Shown here piece after piece: positions 34,758-52,428 of a DNA stretch of 64,000 bases (positions within the stretch are counted from its first letter, which is position 1; each line of letters begins with the position of its first letter). The stretch lies in IMG/VR virus record IMGVR_UViG_3300042567_001420. The stretch is one strand, 5' to 3'. Origin of the DNA: a virus. Its lineage: Duplodnaviria > Caudoviricetes. A program made the translations under genes and the position numbers. A model generated the notes under the pieces. That model did no database searches, had not been told where the DNA came from, and saw only the letters and a program-made list of their open reading frames with translations.

Positions 34758-34765
34758 TATTTATA
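34758..34765 (-). promoter_or_regulatory. T4-type late promoter TATAAATA
   Basis: Exact consensus in the intergenic gap. Confidence 0.7.
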
Positions 34766-38781: not shown

Positions 38782-38880
38782 TTATTTATAAAATAAGGAT
38801 GTTTGGTTTATAGGAGGTATCGGATAAGGATGTTTTGGTTTAGGGGGATTTTTTTTAGGTTTGTGTTTGAACCAGCTCAT
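38782..38880 (-). CDS. 32-aa Pro/Lys-rich small ORF (not in the ORF track)
   Basis: MSWFKHKPKKNPPKPKHPYPIPPINQTSLFYK*, strong SD GGAGG 4 nt before ATG. Confidence 0.55.
   Translation of the reverse strand: MSWFKHKPKKNPPKPKHPYPIPPINQTSLFYK
38783..38790 (-). promoter_or_regulatory. T4-type late promoter TATAAATA
   Basis: Exact consensus upstream of 36815-38761. Confidence 0.7.
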
Positions 38881-42699: not shown

Positions 42700-42707
42700 T
42701 ATTTATA
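42700..42707 (-). promoter_or_regulatory. T4-type late promoter TATAAATA
   Basis: Exact consensus at the head of the 42670-to-38974 gene run. Confidence 0.7.
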
Positions 42708-42764: not shown

Positions 42765-43325
42765 TTAGATGTTAGTATTCCATGCTTTAATTACAGGATG
42801 CAGTACATCATCAGTATAATCCATCTTCATTGTGTTAACAATCGCCAGAATAATCTGAATATTGCCTTTGACATAACCCTTTTTAGAGTTAATACGATCT
42901 ACGCTAGGACGGAATGGGTTTCGATTGCCCTTTGTGCCCAGTTCCATACTAAAAGGAAGTTTGGTGATAGCACATTTACCTTCGCATGCGTCGAACTTGC
43001 TCTGAATATATTGCGGAGTAAGATTAAACGACATCTTACGACCTTTTTTCTCATGAGCAGCAACTCTATTCTTAAGAGCAACGTATTCAGTAATACCGAA
43101 TTTTTCAGGCGATGCTTTCTTTGCTCTATTCGCAATACGAGTTTTGACTCTAATTGCTGCTTTTTGCTCAGGAGTCAAGCTCTCTTTTTTCTTTTGATAA
43201 TCCCATTTACCAAATGCTGTAGCAATGGCATCCTCATCTGCAGTAAGTGGTCTGGCATCTAAACGTCTGATCTGATGTAGACGTTTTGCTTCTTTGCGAA
43301 CTTTGGGATCTTCAAAATTATACAT
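42765..43325 (-). CDS. His-Me-finger (HNH-like) endonuclease-like protein
   Basis: CAITKLPF...SVDRINSKKGYVKGNIQII; start placed at the ATG overlapping the upstream stop. Confidence 0.65.
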   Translation of the reverse strand: MYNFEDPKVRKEAKRLHQIRRLDARPLTADEDAIATAFGKWDYQKKKESLTPEQKAAIRVKTRIANRAKKASPEKFGITEYVALKNRVAAHEKKGRKMSFNLTPQYIQSKFDACEGKCAITKLPFSMELGTKGNRNPFRPSVDRINSKKGYVKGNIQIILAIVNTMKMDYTDDVLHPVIKAWNTNI

Positions 43326-43608
43326 AACCATCCACATTACTTGCGTGATTAGGTTGATTGGAATTGCCGTAATCTACTTTATGAATTAGTTTTTCTGCAA
43401 TATGTCCGTTCATGCTGTCTTTTGCAATTTGATAAAATTCTTTAGTAGTAATTTCTCGGGTTGATACAATGGTCTCGCCTAAACATTTTTGGTCTAGTTC
43501 TTGAGCTTCTTGCATAACTACTGTGTCTTCAGCGTGTTCTGCTGACTCACACTCAATAGCATAGTAATGACGAAATGTAGTAATAGTTTCAACGATGAAT
43601 AGTGGCAT
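43318..43608 (-). CDS. Hypothetical protein
   Basis: 96-aa ORF in a co-oriented run. Confidence 0.65.
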   Translation of the reverse strand: MPLFIVETITTFRHYYAIECESAEHAEDTVVMQEAQELDQKCLGETIVSTREITTKEFYQIAKDSMNGHIAEKLIHKVDYGNSNQPNHASNVDGYV

Positions 43609-43697
43609 GATATACTTTAAAATTTATTCCGCTTACGCCATGCGGAAACACTTTATCGAATGTGGCTCGAATGGTAGAAGTGTTCGACTCGAGTTAA

Positions 43698-43949
43698 TTA
43701 AGCACGAGTGAAAGCATCGCTACCCATAGTAGCATAAGCTGCTGCTACCATTGTGCGGGATGGGGTACCCAAGCGATATGCTGTTTTACCATTCTTAGTA
43801 GAATTGGTATAGATTGCGTGACCTTCAGAACGAAGCTCACTGATACGAGGACGAACGCTGCCCTCAGTTGTGCCAGTCAAACCTGCCAATTGGGCGGGTG
43901 TGAATTGACGACCAGACAAAAGAACTTTCAATACACGGTCTTTAACCAT
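43698..43949 (-). CDS. Small winged-helix DNA-binding protein
   Basis: FTPAQLAGL...SVRPRISELRSEGHAI HTH pattern; SD GGAG; sigma70 promoter upstream. Confidence 0.7.
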   Translation of the reverse strand: MVKDRVLKVLLSGRQFTPAQLAGLTGTTEGSVRPRISELRSEGHAIYTNSTKNGKTAYRLGTPSRTMVAAAYATMGSDAFTRA

Positions 43950-44023
43950 ATAATATCTCCATTAAATAAACAGTCGCTTCAAAATATATCAGTAACGGCG
44001 ACTTTTCATTACTGTATATAACT

Positions 44024-44052
44024 ATTATACAGCATTTAGCTGTATCTGTCAA
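44024..44052 (-). promoter_or_regulatory. sigma70-type early promoter
   Basis: TTGACA-N17-TATAAT, perfect consensus. Confidence 0.85.
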
Positions 44053-44060
44053 GCACTTAG

Positions 44061-44282
44061 TTAGCCTTTTTGTGGCTTCTTGACCTTGTTCAAATATTCT
44101 CTACCAATAAAACCCTGCTCAACTTCATTCAAAGCAGTTACAATTGGCTTATGATGTTTTGCATCAATTTTTGGTGCATATCCTTTGCGCAATTCTCTGG
44201 CGCGAGCTGATGCAATTAGCACCAGATCATACCGATTACCTACCATGTTAACTGCATCTTCTGATGTGATTTGATTTGACAT
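44061..44282 (-). CDS. rpoZ: RNA polymerase omega subunit homolog
   Basis: ITSED...NRYDLVLIASARAREL..G..PKI...KPIVTALNEVEQG matches the RpoZ pattern. Confidence 0.85.
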   Translation of the reverse strand: MSNQITSEDAVNMVGNRYDLVLIASARARELRKGYAPKIDAKHHKPIVTALNEVEQGFIGREYLNKVKKPQKG

Positions 44283-44752
44283 TATGCTACCTTTACGATT
44301 TCTTTTAAACGATCTGCACAGTATGTTGCCGCGAATGCTTTTGGTTTAACAAAAGGAACCACATTACACATACCCTTAATATACCCAATGGCTTCACCTA
44401 CAACGCAAGAAGAGCCAAACATTTCATCTGGGTTAATATCTAAATGAACTTCAATTGGTCTATCATCAATTAGTTTTTCCAATTCAAGATATAAATTTGC
44501 AATTTTGATTACTTCATTCATCAAACGCATACGAGGTTTGTTTTTACGTTGGTCATAATCTTTTTCGGTTTGAACTTCTCCAAAAATTTTACAACCATGT
44601 TTACCATCAATATGAACTACAATTGCCAAAGTATAATCGGCAAACCACATATCATTTTTACGGAAACGTTCTGAATCGCAACCAATATAAATTTTTGTAT
44701 CTGGACCTTGAGCATCAATATACTCTTTAATTTTTACGAAATCGAATTTCAT
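44282..44752 (-). CDS. RNase H-like YkuK (DUF458) family protein
   Basis: KIYIGCDSE, RLMNEV, EVHLDIN, KPKAFAATYCAD. Confidence 0.75.
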   Translation of the reverse strand: MKFDFVKIKEYIDAQGPDTKIYIGCDSERFRKNDMWFADYTLAIVVHIDGKHGCKIFGEVQTEKDYDQRKNKPRMRLMNEVIKIANLYLELEKLIDDRPIEVHLDINPDEMFGSSCVVGEAIGYIKGMCNVVPFVKPKAFAATYCADRLKEIVKVA

Positions 44753-44761
44753 TTTTATTCC

Positions 44762-44835
44762 TGGAGCGGGGTAGGAGAATCGAACTCCTCGCTTTAGCTT
44801 GGAAGGCTAAGGTATTACCACTATACGAACCCCGC
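44762..44835 (-). tRNA. tRNA-Gly(TCC)
   Basis: Cloverleaf, TTAGC-CT-TCC-AA-GCTAA, encoded CCA. Confidence 0.95.
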
Positions 44836-44837
44836 AT

Positions 44838-45617
44838 TTACAATATTACTTCATTTGTTTTGCGCATATCTGCACAAGTATACTCCTGATAACTTGCCTT
44901 TAAAATTTCTGGCATCGGAATAATTTCAATCTCCGCATGATATTCTTCTGCAACCATATCCGCAACATCATAAAAACTCATAGTTTTACCTGTGCCCATA
45001 TTAAAGATTCCAGATCTACTTGATTCTAAAAACTTTAAATGATAATCCACAATAGATTTCACATGAACAAAATCTCTACGATAATTTTCACTATTCTCAA
45101 ATAATTTAATCTTACCTGTTTCTATGGCTTGTTTCTTAAACTGAGCAAATGGGCTTGCCTGATTGCCTTTATGTTCTTCACCTTCCCAAGCCCATACATT
45201 AAAATATCTAAATCCTTGCACAATGGGACTATCATGATGATGTTGTTTTACATATCTTTCAAACAAATACTTTGACCAAGCATAAGGCGTTCTTGGATCC
45301 AACGGAGAATTTTCGCAAAACTCTTTATTCAATCCATACACACTTGCAGAACTAGAATACTGTAAATTAACTCCGAATGTTTTACACTCATCGTATAAAT
45401 CCATGGAGAATTCGTAATTTTGTCTTAGTACTTTATCAATATCTTTTTCGGTTGTTGAACTAATAGCACCAGCATGAATAACCCATTCAAAATCCATAAC
45501 ACCTGGTCTCGGACCATCATCATATTCATACGTTGCAACATCATCACCTCGATCGCGCAAGGCCGTCAATAGTCTAGAACCAATAAATCCTCTATGACCT
45601 GTTAGCAATATTTTCAT
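44838..45617 (-). CDS. hldD: ADP-L-glycero-D-manno-heptose 6-epimerase-like NAD-dependent epimerase
   Basis: GHRGFIGS, HAGAISSTTE, YSSSASVYG, YAWSK, FRYFNV, RRDFVHV. Confidence 0.85.
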   Translation of the reverse strand: MKILLTGHRGFIGSRLLTALRDRGDDVATYEYDDGPRPGVMDFEWVIHAGAISSTTEKDIDKVLRQNYEFSMDLYDECKTFGVNLQYSSSASVYGLNKEFCENSPLDPRTPYAWSKYLFERYVKQHHHDSPIVQGFRYFNVWAWEGEEHKGNQASPFAQFKKQAIETGKIKLFENSENYRRDFVHVKSIVDYHLKFLESSRSGIFNMGTGKTMSFYDVADMVAEEYHAEIEIIPMPEILKASYQEYTCADMRKTNEVIL

Positions 45618-45906
45618 TGTAATATACCTCGCTGTTTACCGCTTTATCATCGATCCAAATATCGTATGCGGGTTTACCTAATTTTAATGTTGTATACTTA
45701 ACTTGCCAGTTGGCAAATTGTTGTCTTGTAAGAGTTGTCCAATCAATACCAGAGTTACCACCTCTTGCTGTCCAATAATGAATCTCATTTCCCGCATCAA
45801 ACAGTTTATTAAAATGTGCAATTCGATCCGCAAAAGGTTGAGCACTATGATAATCACCTACAGTATTACTACAAATTGTGCCATCAATATCTACAAGGTA
45901 TTTCAT
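45592..45906 (-). CDS. HAD-superfamily phosphatase
   Basis: VDIDGTIC motif I, WTARG, GKP..D.WIDDKA. Confidence 0.8.
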   Translation of the reverse strand: MKYLVDIDGTICSNTVGDYHSAQPFADRIAHFNKLFDAGNEIHYWTARGGNSGIDWTTLTRQQFANWQVKYTTLKLGKPAYDIWIDDKAVNSEVYYNENIANRS

Positions 45907-46259
45907 GTCTGACTATCTCCAGGTGCAACTCTATAATTATCTTCTACCGAATCAGGTGTACTAACTTCAATGATAGTACCTTCTTCCTGACAAACCAATT
46001 GATGCGGTAAACATGGAGGATTGTGCCAAGTATCGCCCGATTTAAGATACTTAATTTGTTCTTTGGCTGTTTTGGTATCAATCCATTTGACAAAGAATAA
46101 CCCGTCAAGTACATACCATGATTCATCTTTTTCAGAATGAAAGTGCATACTAAATTTTGCACCAGAGTTGAACTTCATCAACTTGCCGCAATATTTATCG
46201 TTAGTAGCCCAGATTAATTCGTGACCCCAACCTTTTTTAACAAAACCCTCAAGCCTCAT
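45903..46259 (-). CDS. Cupin-domain protein (sugar-isomerase-like)
   Basis: KGWGHE, SMHFHSEKDESW, PCLPHQL, EVSTPD. Confidence 0.8.
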   Translation of the reverse strand: MRLEGFVKKGWGHELIWATNDKYCGKLMKFNSGAKFSMHFHSEKDESWYVLDGLFFVKWIDTKTAKEQIKYLKSGDTWHNPPCLPHQLVCQEEGTIIEVSTPDSVEDNYRVAPGDSQT

Positions 46260-47035
46260 TTTATTTCCTTTAGTGTAGGTGCATAATTGCCAACATGCTG
46301 TACTGTAATTGACGATGCTTTATTTGCAAATCTGATTGCATCTTCAATACTATTCGTCACCAGATATTGATAAGCTAAGGCGGCTAAGAATGTATCACCT
46401 GCCCCACACGCATCAAGAACATCAACTTTTTTGGTTGCGTAATTTGTGTTGACATACTCACTCCGTAACATTGCACCATTGGCACCCAACGTCACAATCA
46501 TATCCCATGCATACGACTCAGCCGCTTCAAATTCTTTTTCGTTGATTTTAACGTAAGCACCATTAAACGCTTCTAAGTTTCTTTTCTTCGTATCGATAAA
46601 AACTGGCCCATTAAAATTGTGAATCAGATTTTGAATGTGTTCGTAAGTTAAAAAGCCTTTATTGTAATCAGACACAACAACAGCATCATAACCTTCCGTA
46701 TCTACAATTCCATCCCATGGCTCTATCTTTGGCTCATCATCTATTCTAACAATTTGATATCCAGATTTTTCGTCTATGATTCTAGTCTTTGTGATCCTAG
46801 GTTCACCATTAATGCCAGCAGACGGATTTGAAATTATGGTTGTGTTACACCCAAGTTTATGCAGATTGCTATGGACATTTCGTGCCATACCAAGTCTGGT
46901 TTCTTTTCGTGTTAGTTTGATTATGGGAATTGGGGCTTCTGGACTCAATCTATCGATTGTTCCATATTGATAAACATCTATGCAAGAATCACCGAGCAAT
47001 AATATTTTGAATTGTTTTTGTTGTTGAATATCCAT
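46256..47035 (-). CDS. Heptose kinase (RfaE domain I/HldA-like, PfkB family)
   Basis: DVYQYG...LSPEAPIP, VSDYNKG, VTLGANG, DACGAGDTF. Confidence 0.85.
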   Translation of the reverse strand: MDIQQQKQFKILLLGDSCIDVYQYGTIDRLSPEAPIPIIKLTRKETRLGMARNVHSNLHKLGCNTTIISNPSAGINGEPRITKTRIIDEKSGYQIVRIDDEPKIEPWDGIVDTEGYDAVVVSDYNKGFLTYEHIQNLIHNFNGPVFIDTKKRNLEAFNGAYVKINEKEFEAAESYAWDMIVTLGANGAMLRSEYVNTNYATKKVDVLDACGAGDTFLAALAYQYLVTNSIEDAIRFANKASSITVQHVGNYAPTLKEIK

Positions 47036-47384
47036 TTACCAAATCCACAAATCTAATCTCTTTACAATATTGACTTCCCACAATAGGCTTATCTTTATAA
47101 TCACTACCCTTAACCATTATAGGGGAATACTGTTTACAAAGCATTTCTAATTCTTTAGCTGAATCAAATATATGAACAGCACTAACTGCTCTTAAATTTT
47201 GTAACAGATGTTTTCTATCATCTTGATTATTAATAGGTCTACTATTGCCTTTTAATTCTTTAACTCGTCTATCCGAATCAATACAGACTATAAGTTGTTG
47301 ACCACAACCTCTGGCATAATTAAGTAATTCGATATGTCCTCTATGGACAATATCAAAGGTGCCGTTGACAAGAATATTAATCAT
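46989..47384 (-). CDS. Heptose-phosphate nucleotidyltransferase (RfaE domain II/HldC-like)
   Basis: NGTFDIVHRGH, SDRRVKELKG..RPIN, VKGSDY, GYSTT. Confidence 0.85.
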   Translation of the reverse strand: MINILVNGTFDIVHRGHIELLNYARGCGQQLIVCIDSDRRVKELKGNSRPINNQDDRKHLLQNLRAVSAVHIFDSAKELEMLCKQYSPIMVKGSDYKDKPIVGSQYCKEIRFVDLVNGYSTTKTIQNIIAR

Positions 47385-47390
47385 ATAAAA

Positions 47391-47467
<77 letters not shown>

Positions 47468-47484
47468 GTTGTTTCTATTAAAAA

Positions 47485-47569
47485 TGGTACCTGAGACCGG
47501 AATCGAACCGGTACACCTTGCGGCGAGAGATTTTAAGTCTCTTGTGTCTACCTATTTCACCACTCAGGC
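47485..47569 (-). tRNA. tRNA-Leu(TAA)
   Basis: Long variable arm, AGAGA-CT-TAA-AA-TCTCT. Confidence 0.95.
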
Positions 47570-47575
47570 GTTTGG

Positions 47576-47872
47576 TTATCCTCGGTAGTCTACATCTATT
47601 TCCGACCAAGTACGCAGCTTATCGAATTTTCTTTGTTTAAACTGAATTACATTATTATAAGAAATAACTTTGTGCGAATCTAACAATTCAATCATTGCGA
47701 GAACATCGCCCAATTCTTCTTCAAGATGGTTTGTATTTGTTTTGCTTGGGGTATTTGGATGTGTATCAAACAATCCGAATCGAAATACTTTCGATGTTGC
47801 TTGAATTACTTCTGCGCATTCTTCTTGTAAAATCTGAAGAATGGCTGCTTGATCTTTGTTAAGTTCATTCAT
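47576..47872 (-). CDS. MazG-like all-alpha NTP pyrophosphohydrolase
   Basis: LQEECAEVIQ...LEEELGDVLAMI (EExxE...EExxD). Confidence 0.75.
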   Translation of the reverse strand: MNELNKDQAAILQILQEECAEVIQATSKVFRFGLFDTHPNTPSKTNTNHLEEELGDVLAMIELLDSHKVISYNNVIQFKQRKFDKLRTWSEIDVDYRG

Positions 47873-47891
47873 ATTGTCACCTTAAAAATAT

Positions 47892-47920
47892 ATTATAACA
47901 GAATACGTGTTATATGTCAA
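47892..47920 (-). promoter_or_regulatory. sigma70-type early promoter
   Basis: TTGACA-N17-TATAAT. Confidence 0.85.
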
Positions 47921-48348
47921 GCATATTCGTAATTTACGGTATCCAAATTCTTTCTAAATTCTGTCGCACCGTTTTTCAAATGGAATCGTTTGGCCATTTC
48001 AGTAGGTGGGCTTAGTGTAACAAATCTTTTTATACTTGGACGAGTACTTGTTATATGGTCTCTGGCTTTAAAGATAAGTTCGCGACCTGCACCCGGAGTA
48101 TAACTCCATATGGTGTAGAATATAACGGTATCTGGTTCAGCGGGTTTGAAGAAAAGTTCCTCGCAGGTTGTCGGGATGCTGTCCATATAGGCAACACATA
48201 CTACTGCTTGCGGTTTTTCATCTTTGAGGAGTATGAGAACTTCCCTATTTTCGGTGATTCGAAAAGCGACGGGAATCTCAGGGCGGACAGGGTCGTCTTC
48301 GATTACTCGAAGAATCGGATCATCTAAATTTTGTGGTTTATATATCAT
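47917..48348 (-). CDS. Hypothetical protein, weak GNAT-like pattern
   Basis: FYTIWSY..GAGRELI...MAKRFHLKNGA; late promoter upstream. Confidence 0.55.
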   Translation of the reverse strand: MIYKPQNLDDPILRVIEDDPVRPEIPVAFRITENREVLILLKDEKPQAVVCVAYMDSIPTTCEELFFKPAEPDTVIFYTIWSYTPGAGRELIFKARDHITSTRPSIKRFVTLSPPTEMAKRFHLKNGATEFRKNLDTVNYEYA

Positions 48349-48370: not shown

Positions 48371-48378
48371 TATTTATA
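48371..48378 (-). promoter_or_regulatory. T4-type late promoter TATAAATA
   Basis: Exact consensus upstream of 47917-48348. Confidence 0.65.
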
Positions 48379-49549: not shown

Positions 49550-49819
49550 TTATTCTTCTTCAATAACAGCAAGAACATCTTCTTCATTAATAATGCCTAA
49601 GAATTCTTCACCATTTTTGAATGGTTTTACTTTGCTCCATGACAAGTAAATTTTATCGCCTGCTTTTACTTCTTGAACATCTGGCCCTACAGAAACAACA
49701 ATACTAATTCTAGTATCATTAGATGCAAGTGCACCTTGTAGGATAATGCCACTTTCAGTTTCTTCAGGAAGTTTTTCTTCGCGAATAACAATACGATCAT
49801 GCAATGGAATAAAGTTCAT
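49550..49819 (-). CDS. groES: Co-chaperonin GroES
   Basis: PLHDRIVI...TESGIIL...VSVGPD...VKAGDKI...EEDVLAVI. Confidence 0.9.
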   Translation of the reverse strand: MNFIPLHDRIVIREEKLPEETESGIILQGALASNDTRISIVVSVGPDVQEVKAGDKIYLSWSKVKPFKNGEEFLGIINEEDVLAVIEEE

Positions 49820-52420: not shown

Positions 52421-52428
52421 TATTTATA
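52421..52428 (-). promoter_or_regulatory. T4-type late promoter TATAAATA giving a probable leaderless transcript
   Basis: TATAAATA-TTTTT-ATG places the expected +1 on or next to the A of ATG. Confidence 0.7.

Follow-up and report, generated by a model that had tools for sequence, protein, structure and literature searches.

The window, the whole stretch of 64,000 nucleotides that was analysed, carries on its minus strand a 73-codon open reading frame (44061–44282) that encodes a phage-borne homolog of RpoZ, the omega subunit of RNA polymerase (RNAP), as confirmed by the reading frame, profile matches, and fold. The protein begins with MSNQITSED. A Shine–Dalgarno-like AAAGG, read from the sequence, lies 7 nt 5′ of the ATG (44290–44294, minus strand). 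Between relatives, the N-terminal codons differ synonymously and the residues are constant, indicating that the start codon is real. The ATG overlaps by one base the TAA of the preceding gene (TAATG), which suggests that the two genes are translationally coupled. The preceding gene, here called RNaseH_like (44282–44752, minus strand), encodes a 156-aa protein with profile matches to PF04308 and phrog_11311, and 24 of 93 related loci have such a gene close to omega.

A tRNA-Gly(TCC) gene (44762–44835, minus strand) lies between the RNaseH_like–rpoZ pair and the heptose genes. The nearest strong promoter upstream of rpoZ is a perfect sigma70-type promoter at 47892–47920 (minus strand; TTGACA-17-TATAAT with an extended −10 TGT). 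The first gene after it encodes a MazG-like pyrophosphohydrolase (47579–47872, minus strand), located by tblastn with the MazG proteins of relatives; a MazG-like gene is close to omega in 23 of the 93 loci. We regard 47892–47920 as the candidate start of a MazG–tRNA–heptose–RNaseH_like–rpoZ transcript. The putative unit would run in the order promoter, MazG, tRNA-Leu, tRNA-Met, heptose genes, tRNA-Gly, RNaseH_like, and omega. In addition, a T4-type late-promoter motif, TATAAATA, is positioned at 48371–48378 (minus strand), just upstream of an MCD-like gene, and is a possible source of late read-through into the MazG-to-rpoZ unit. In the whole window the motif occurs 13 times against 9.7 expected and is thus not enriched. 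It lies ~20–30 nt 5′ of gene starts on the minus strand at 48371–48378, 42700–42707, 38783–38790, 34758–34765, and 52421–52428. The MCD-like gene (47920–48348, minus strand) encodes 143 aa with a weak match to Pfam MCD (malonyl-CoA decarboxylase). Genes of this type (e.g., L170:321-845) are the commonest neighbours of omega (34 of the 93 loci), even in distant clades that share no other synteny. A GroES-like Cpn10 homolog (49559–49819, minus strand), 43–48% identical to the Cpn10 of relatives, lies inside the tRNA array.

On the other side of rpoZ, a perfect sigma70-type promoter (44024–44052, minus strand) begins 9 nt past the stop codon. It bounds the rpoZ unit on the 3′ side and serves the next gene, which lies directly downstream of omega, encodes an 83-aa winged-helix protein (43698–43949, minus strand), and is conserved in the wider clade of the query, the window omega. 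Contigs of ~300–350 nt from four lake metatranscriptome runs span 43651–44068 with 1–4 mismatches and leave the flanks uncovered. The winged-helix gene, behind its perfect sigma70 promoter, looks like an abundant monocistronic early transcript. Over 43600–48000, contigs from the four lake runs cover the winged-helix unit and tRNAs and, of omega, the last 8 nt only, a coverage that is no measure of omega expression since such contigs drop rare transcripts. Further along the same strand, a 190-aa ORF (42765–43337, minus strand) has endonucleases as its top PHROG matches (E=1e-23), along with weak matches to T4 Srd anti-sigma and to a ‘decoy of host sigma70’ (E=7e-6 and 1e-3).

A preliminary description of this DNA had read the protein as an RpoZ homolog, and the profile search that it proposed bears this out. 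The window omega matches Pfam RNA_pol_Rpb6 (PF01192; E=1e-14, 54.7 bits) and NCBIfam rpoZ (TIGR00690; E=1.2e-11, 44.4 bits), both above the curated cut-offs of 26 and 23.6 bits, respectively. No PHROGs family is matched. A phmmer search against all PDB chains returns omega subunits only, with a best E of 5e-12. In an AlphaFold2 model made with 25 family members (pLDDT 80), the protein folds into four helices (residues 7–14, 17–33, 46–55, and 61–68) preceded by a floppy N-terminus. In Foldseek, the model superimposes on E. coli omega chains from dozens of RNAP structures with TM scores of 0.75–0.78 and rmsd of 2.3–3.0 Å.

The window omega shares with E. coli RpoZ (8tom_K, 4jk1_J) ~41% identity over residues 4–66, the four-helix fold, and the motif NR[FY]DLVL...RxR...ALxEIExG. 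The three elements of this motif, which hold the β′-binding helix residues, are all present in the window omega and are near-invariant in 162 phage and 91 bacterial omegas. In E. coli numbering, the core positions kept across both sets are N15, R16, F/Y17, D18, L19, V20, L21, A23, R26, and R28, and further V48, A50, L51, E53, I54, and G57; E55 is likewise invariant among the phage omegas. Unlike E. coli RpoZ, the window omega has 73 residues without the acidic C-terminal tail, one additional N-terminal residue, Gln in place of Arg3, and Asn in place of Arg52. The phage family also differs from E. coli RpoZ in having Glu at 29, Leu at 30, Gly60, Tyr63, Leu64, and a basic tail.

The window belongs to the genome of an uncultured freshwater T4-like phage. 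Its DNA polymerase is of the gp43 type (phrog_262) and is 50–52% identical to gp43 of T4-like cyanophages. Also in the window are giant ORFs for tail-fibre and baseplate proteins, 23 tRNA genes, small genes with PHROG matches, and heptose-sugar genes. In contrast to gammaproteobacterial rpoZ, the gene is phage-borne and lies outside the chromosomal gmk-rpoZ-spoT arrangement, with phage genes and tRNAs as its neighbours. The stretch is found almost verbatim in lake-water metagenomes of 2016, 2020, 2023, and 2024.

Near-consensus sigma70 promoters (TTGACA-17-TATAAT, at most one mismatch) number 12 in the window against 1.1 expected, all on the gene-bearing minus strand, and range over 6028 to 61333. 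The discriminators are AT-rich in all 12, and about half carry a conserved TGC directly 5′ of TTGACA and a TGT extended −10. These 12 near-perfect promoters indicate that the phage relies on the host sigma70 RNAP. The β′ domain PF00623 was searched for in three complete genomes of omega-bearing phages (202, 364, and 524 kb) and was found in none, a search that very divergent RNAPs could escape. Given this lack in the complete relatives, we reject the possibility that the phage omega serves a phage-encoded multisubunit RNAP. A gp55-like sigma is encoded by the closest complete relative, in keeping with the T4 scheme, in which phage factors are combined with a host core. Together, the lack of PF00623 in complete relatives and the gp55-like sigma leave host β′ as the all but certain partner of the phage omega.

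Relatives of the window omega are widespread in viromes. A pattern scan of IMG/VR finds at least 414 viral contigs that encode one, including a protein 100% identical to the query, and a collection of 5.8 billion proteins holds 153 clusters of relatives, from 97% down to ~55% identity. All seven gene contexts inspected (MSNQ, MTARY, MAR, MPRQ, and MTLAL types) are phage-like, and the cellular gmk-rpoZ-spoT arrangement is found in none of these seven. The wider clade of the query has the common gene order RNaseH_like, (MazG), omega, winged-helix, ..., DUF6267, DUF6321. A tblastn search of 50,697 deposited phage records returned eight hits, all bacterial-type and 41–42% identical, and phage-type omega was not found among these records. 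Of the hits that we inspected, the one with annotation turned out to be a gmk-rpoZ-spoT locus of bacterial origin that bears the name of a phage, and another comes from a record without annotation that is flagged UNVERIFIED. The 240-kb ‘Acinetobacter phage MD-2021a’ (L207; CAKLQH020000003.1 146718-154909) carries pilus genes, ispH, and gmk-rpoZ-spoT, indicating that this stretch is bacterial chromosome misfiled as phage. A full-text literature search found no paper on phage-encoded omega or rpoZ. The phage omegas form a large family that is undescribed in the literature searched, has no PHROG, and is missing from deposited phage genomes. One omega-bearing phage (L117, a 215-kb IMG/VR record) also encodes a DksA/TraR-type zinc-finger protein (G405:C1:46408-46512; 119-aa ORF, 43.7 bits), which may give this phage group a second hold on the ppGpp/RNAP axis.

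Cellular omegas are only distant relatives. The closest gammaproteobacterial omegas, from Aeromonadaceae, Succinivibrionaceae, Granulosicoccaceae, and Colwelliaceae, are 44–52% identical to the window omega, and short 67-aa omegas that we label beta-type from their sequence signature are 51–53% identical. In an even sample of 401 Pseudomonadota genomes, no omega is more than 53% identical to the window protein. The short beta-type omegas (L182–L184 and L196) resemble the window omega in length and in the second half of the sequence (GHAPKI..NKPxVTALxEI.EGKxG.E.LKKV), but they keep MARITVED and Arg52, and their first helix (CL..IPNRF[EQ]L) differs from that of the phage protein. The top four ‘MAG’ hits (L010, L011, L012, and L013, in bins named Lentimicrobiaceae, Polynucleobacter, Haliscomenobacter, and Sediminibacterium, respectively) were considered as cellular donors or hosts and rejected, as they lie on short contigs and have phage-type N-termini in the three that are readable; co-abundance has probably put phage DNA into the wrong bins here. 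The Polynucleobacter MAG has its own MARITVED omega on a separate contig (L177).

When the N-terminal columns are left out of the tree, 90 phage-type omegas and 39 alpha/beta/gamma-type omegas fall on opposite sides of a long branch (SH-aLRT 98), and the phage side adjoins the gamma-type omegas. The earliest-branching phage members have the canonical MAR start, in a tree that has only ~72 columns and resolves the deep branching order within the family poorly. With the N-terminal columns included, the members of the MSNQ group cluster together as a single clade (support 92), whose sister is the MT[AS]RY group. The path to Gln was likely a change of Arg CGA to CAA within an N-terminus that was already extended.

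No subunit of bacterial RNAP is less understood than omega. In Proteobacteria, it has a single clear function in regulation, the formation of ppGpp site 1. In published structures, this site sits between β′ and omega. The 5′- and 3′-phosphates of ppGpp face R3 and R52 of omega, respectively (bioRxiv 10.1101/188680), most contacts with the 5′-diphosphate come from Ala2 and Arg3 (PMC13192712), and omega residues 2–5 coordinate the ppGpp phosphates (PMC7676912). The MAR motif and its site-1 contacts are taken from PMC6416229, PMC13192712, and 10.1101/188680. When the window omega is aligned by phmmer, its residues 4–66 correspond to residues 3–66 of E. coli omega (E=2e-11), with one gap after position 33. 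Gln4, Asn3, and Ser2 are thereby paired with Arg3, Ala2, and Met1, respectively. In accordance, the preliminary description was right that the Arg3 equivalent is Gln and that the N-terminus is extended by one residue; its statement that proteobacterial omegas start with MAR is true of all 91 distinct bacterial omegas that we examined. In addition, the window omega has Asn52 where E. coli omega has Arg52, and so both ppGpp-facing positions, Gln4 and Asn52, are uncharged. The Arg52-to-Asn substitution, which is new and absent from that description, would be a second change at site 1 beyond Arg3 to Gln. We took a MAR start with Arg3 and an Arg or Lys at position 52 as the marks of a site-1-forming omega, and the window omega has neither.

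Phage and bacterial omegas were compared at these positions. The 91 bacterial omegas consist of 70 gammaproteobacterial sequences from a pattern scan and the rest from the even sample of 401 Pseudomonadota genomes, and all have the MAR start and R or K at position 52 (R in 88, K in 3). The 162 distinct phage omegas were gathered by similarity to the query, and proportions among them are not population frequencies: 31 are canonical, with MAR and a basic residue at 52; 1 has the canonical start only, with a non-basic residue at 52; 92 keep Arg3 in an extended or altered N-terminus (85 non-basic and 7 basic at 52); and 38 have lost Arg3 (21 non-basic and 17 basic, mostly Lys, at 52). The canonical site is therefore found in 31/162 phage omegas versus 91/91 bacterial omegas. 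Among the phage omegas, the residue at 52 is basic in 31 of the 32 with a canonical N-terminus versus 24 of the 130 with an altered one. When only supported branches count, this covariation amounts to 2 independent contrasts (8 if all branches are used), with p ≥0.5 in an underpowered test, and it may reflect few evolutionary events. Loss of Arg3 is a subclade trait, as sister phage clades retain Arg (MT[AS]RY). The retention of Arg3 in sister clades, together with the 31 canonical sites among 162, means that a ppGpp-blind omega cannot have been the function on which the family was founded. An assembly or stability role probably underlies all its members.

The phage omega is under purifying selection. 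Within the MSNQ clade, dN/dS is 0.08–0.15 (about 0.1) at dS ~2. MSNQ[IV]TSED is invariant clade-wide despite synonymous differences in codons 2 and 5, indicating that the odd N-terminus is translated and constrained.

We put at an even chance the reading that the phage omega joins the host RNAP core and makes ppGpp site 1 weaker in this clade, so that elongation would keep pace. Omega would be made from the early sigma70-driven (possibly also late) unit whose first gene is MazG. It would probably bind host β′ at the normal omega site and would be incorporated in place of host omega. RNAP carrying it would bind ppGpp poorly at site 1 on account of Gln4, Asn52, and the longer N-terminus, and phage transcription would go unslowed when the infected cell, drained of amino acids, raises ppGpp. 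The binding to host β′, the incorporation, the lost ppGpp binding, and the benefit are steps that we infer from the residues and the gene context. The stringent response is documented to restrict phages, and phages to counter it (PMC13483052). Control of initiation by ppGpp is exerted mainly through the DksA-dependent site 2, whereas elongation is the main target of site 1 (PMC7676912, PMC13192712). As site 1 mainly slows elongation, the likely gain would be the pace of phage transcription under ppGpp.

The preliminary description had instead proposed that the phage omega keeps the sigma70 tRNA promoters active. This is unlikely, given the main action of site 1 on elongation (PMC7676912, PMC13192712). 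The 12 phage promoters have consensus hexamers, a 17-bp spacer, AT-rich discriminators, and, in many cases, an extended −10 TGn, and they look intrinsically ppGpp-insensitive. Consensus hexamers, a 17-bp spacer, and an AT-rich discriminator make a promoter ppGpp-insensitive and are the opposite of what is found at stringently controlled promoters. Loss of Arg3 in only a subclade, with Arg kept in sister clades, also speaks against protection of tRNA promoters. Escape from ppGpp-induced slowing of elongation would be the better-fitting explanation.

Several observations weigh against the reading that the phage omega weakens site 1. The closest cellular omegas are just 44–53% identical, and the host RNAP may make no use of site 1. 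Pre-formed RNAP already carries host omega, which the phage protein would have to replace. Site 1 contributes little to initiation, and deletion of rpoZ in E. coli has a mild effect (PMC7676912, 10.1101/188680). RNAP that lacks omega residues 2–5 and carries three β′ substitutions binds ppGpp only ~two-fold worse in one assay (PMC7676912), and loss of the residues is therefore no guarantee of loss of binding. The MazG neighbour was considered as a link to ppGpp and discounted, as cyanophage MazG does not hydrolyse ppGpp (PMC6850273).

A wider form of this reading would extend it to the whole family, whose members would equip host RNAP with an omega of their own, by exchange or addition, and so dismantle site 1, a receptor-level escape from the stringent response that different clades would reach by different routes. 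The routes would be a longer N-terminus, replacement of Arg3 by Gln or Gly, and replacement of Arg52 by Asn or Gln. We hold this wider form to be possible but doubtful. We know of no phage for which substitution of a core subunit has been described as a takeover strategy.

The phage omega could instead be an assembly helper only, an extra omega that chaperones and stabilises host β′ and enlarges the pool of active RNAP. Binding of ppGpp would then be of no consequence to the phage, and the N-terminus and position 52 would have drifted on release from host-type constraint. Folding and latching of β′ is the best-documented role of omega (PMC7700224). The phage N-termini are diverse (MAR, MT[AS]RY, MxESRARY, MSR, MPR, MSNQ, MGLS, and xGL), as under relaxed constraint, and the canonical site is retained in the 31 phage omegas noted above. 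The GroES-like Cpn10 gene in the same region hints at a protein-folding theme. However, the invariance of MSNQ[IV]TSED at dS ~2 is unlike drift. Moreover, the two ppGpp-facing positions change together (31/32 versus 24/130 basic at 52), which suggests that a single functional unit was lost, albeit on the basis of few independent events. On balance, an assembly role with no further function is rather unlikely.

It is improbable that the phage omega mainly provides a docking platform, which would give host RNAP a phage-specific face for recognition by a phage regulator or sigma and so mark modified polymerases for phage genes. Such a platform would account for the family-specific invariants that are absent from bacterial omegas, namely Glu at 29, Leu at 30, Gly60, Tyr63, Leu64, and the basic C-terminal tail. 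There is also a precedent in the activator GafA of the gene transfer agent RcGTA, which binds omega directly (PMC9638019) and makes use of it to regulate the expression of phage-like genes; GafA, however, acts through the host's own omega. The winged-helix protein, whose gene is directly downstream in 23 loci, is 74–99% identical over these loci and more conserved than omega. However, its adjacency to omega is limited to the wider clade of the query, and a promoter separates the two genes. A complex prediction of the phage omega with the winged-helix protein gives an ipSAE of 0.00, a value with no bearing either way on these claims. Finally, small RNAP-directed inhibitors and decoys are common among phages and the neighbouring ORF 42765–43337 is weakly similar to T4 Srd and ‘decoy of sigma70’ PHROGs, but it is very improbable that the phage omega shuts down host transcription by competing with host omega or by titrating a host factor that reads omega, since the phage needs host RNAP throughout (consensus sigma70 promoters, and a gp55-like sigma in a relative), the β′-binding core is conserved like that of a working subunit, and the best matches of that ORF are endonucleases.

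Phage factors that re-program host RNAP include gp55, gp33, AsiA, and Alt of T4, Gp2 of T7, P7 of Xp10, and gp39 of P23-45. Like these factors, the phage omega is a phage-encoded protein that would attach to host RNAP and alter its regulation, and the T4-like relatives also carry a gp55-like sigma. Unlike the T4, T7, Xp10, and P23-45 factors, which are sigma factors, inhibitors, or modifying enzymes, none of them homologous to a core subunit, it is a homolog of a core subunit. If the phage omega does become part of host RNAP, this would be, to our knowledge, the first known phage that uses host RNAP and encodes a homolog of a host core subunit. The T7 portal protein Gp8, which inhibits RelA/SpoT (PMC13483052), answers to the same presumed pressure, the ppGpp-mediated restriction of phage growth. 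Gp8, and the hydrolysis of ppGpp once proposed for cyanophage MazG and since refuted (PMC6850273), act on the synthesis or level of the alarmone, whereas the phage omega is predicted to act at the receptor, site 1 of RNAP, through replacement of a subunit.

In summary, it is well supported that the window encodes a real phage-borne omega of a large family of T4-like lake phages, and an anti-stringent mechanism is plausible from the residues at site 1. The family is abundant in lake viromes and absent from cultured phages and PHROGs, and annotation pipelines see a stray ‘omega subunit’. If the phage omega enters host RNAP, the few known anti-stringent countermeasures of phages would be joined by one that acts at the receptor. 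The phage omegas keep the β′-binding core and vary the ppGpp-facing residues, and thus make up a natural mutant series that sets the structural role of omega apart from its signalling role and can be used for asking what site 1 does in vivo.
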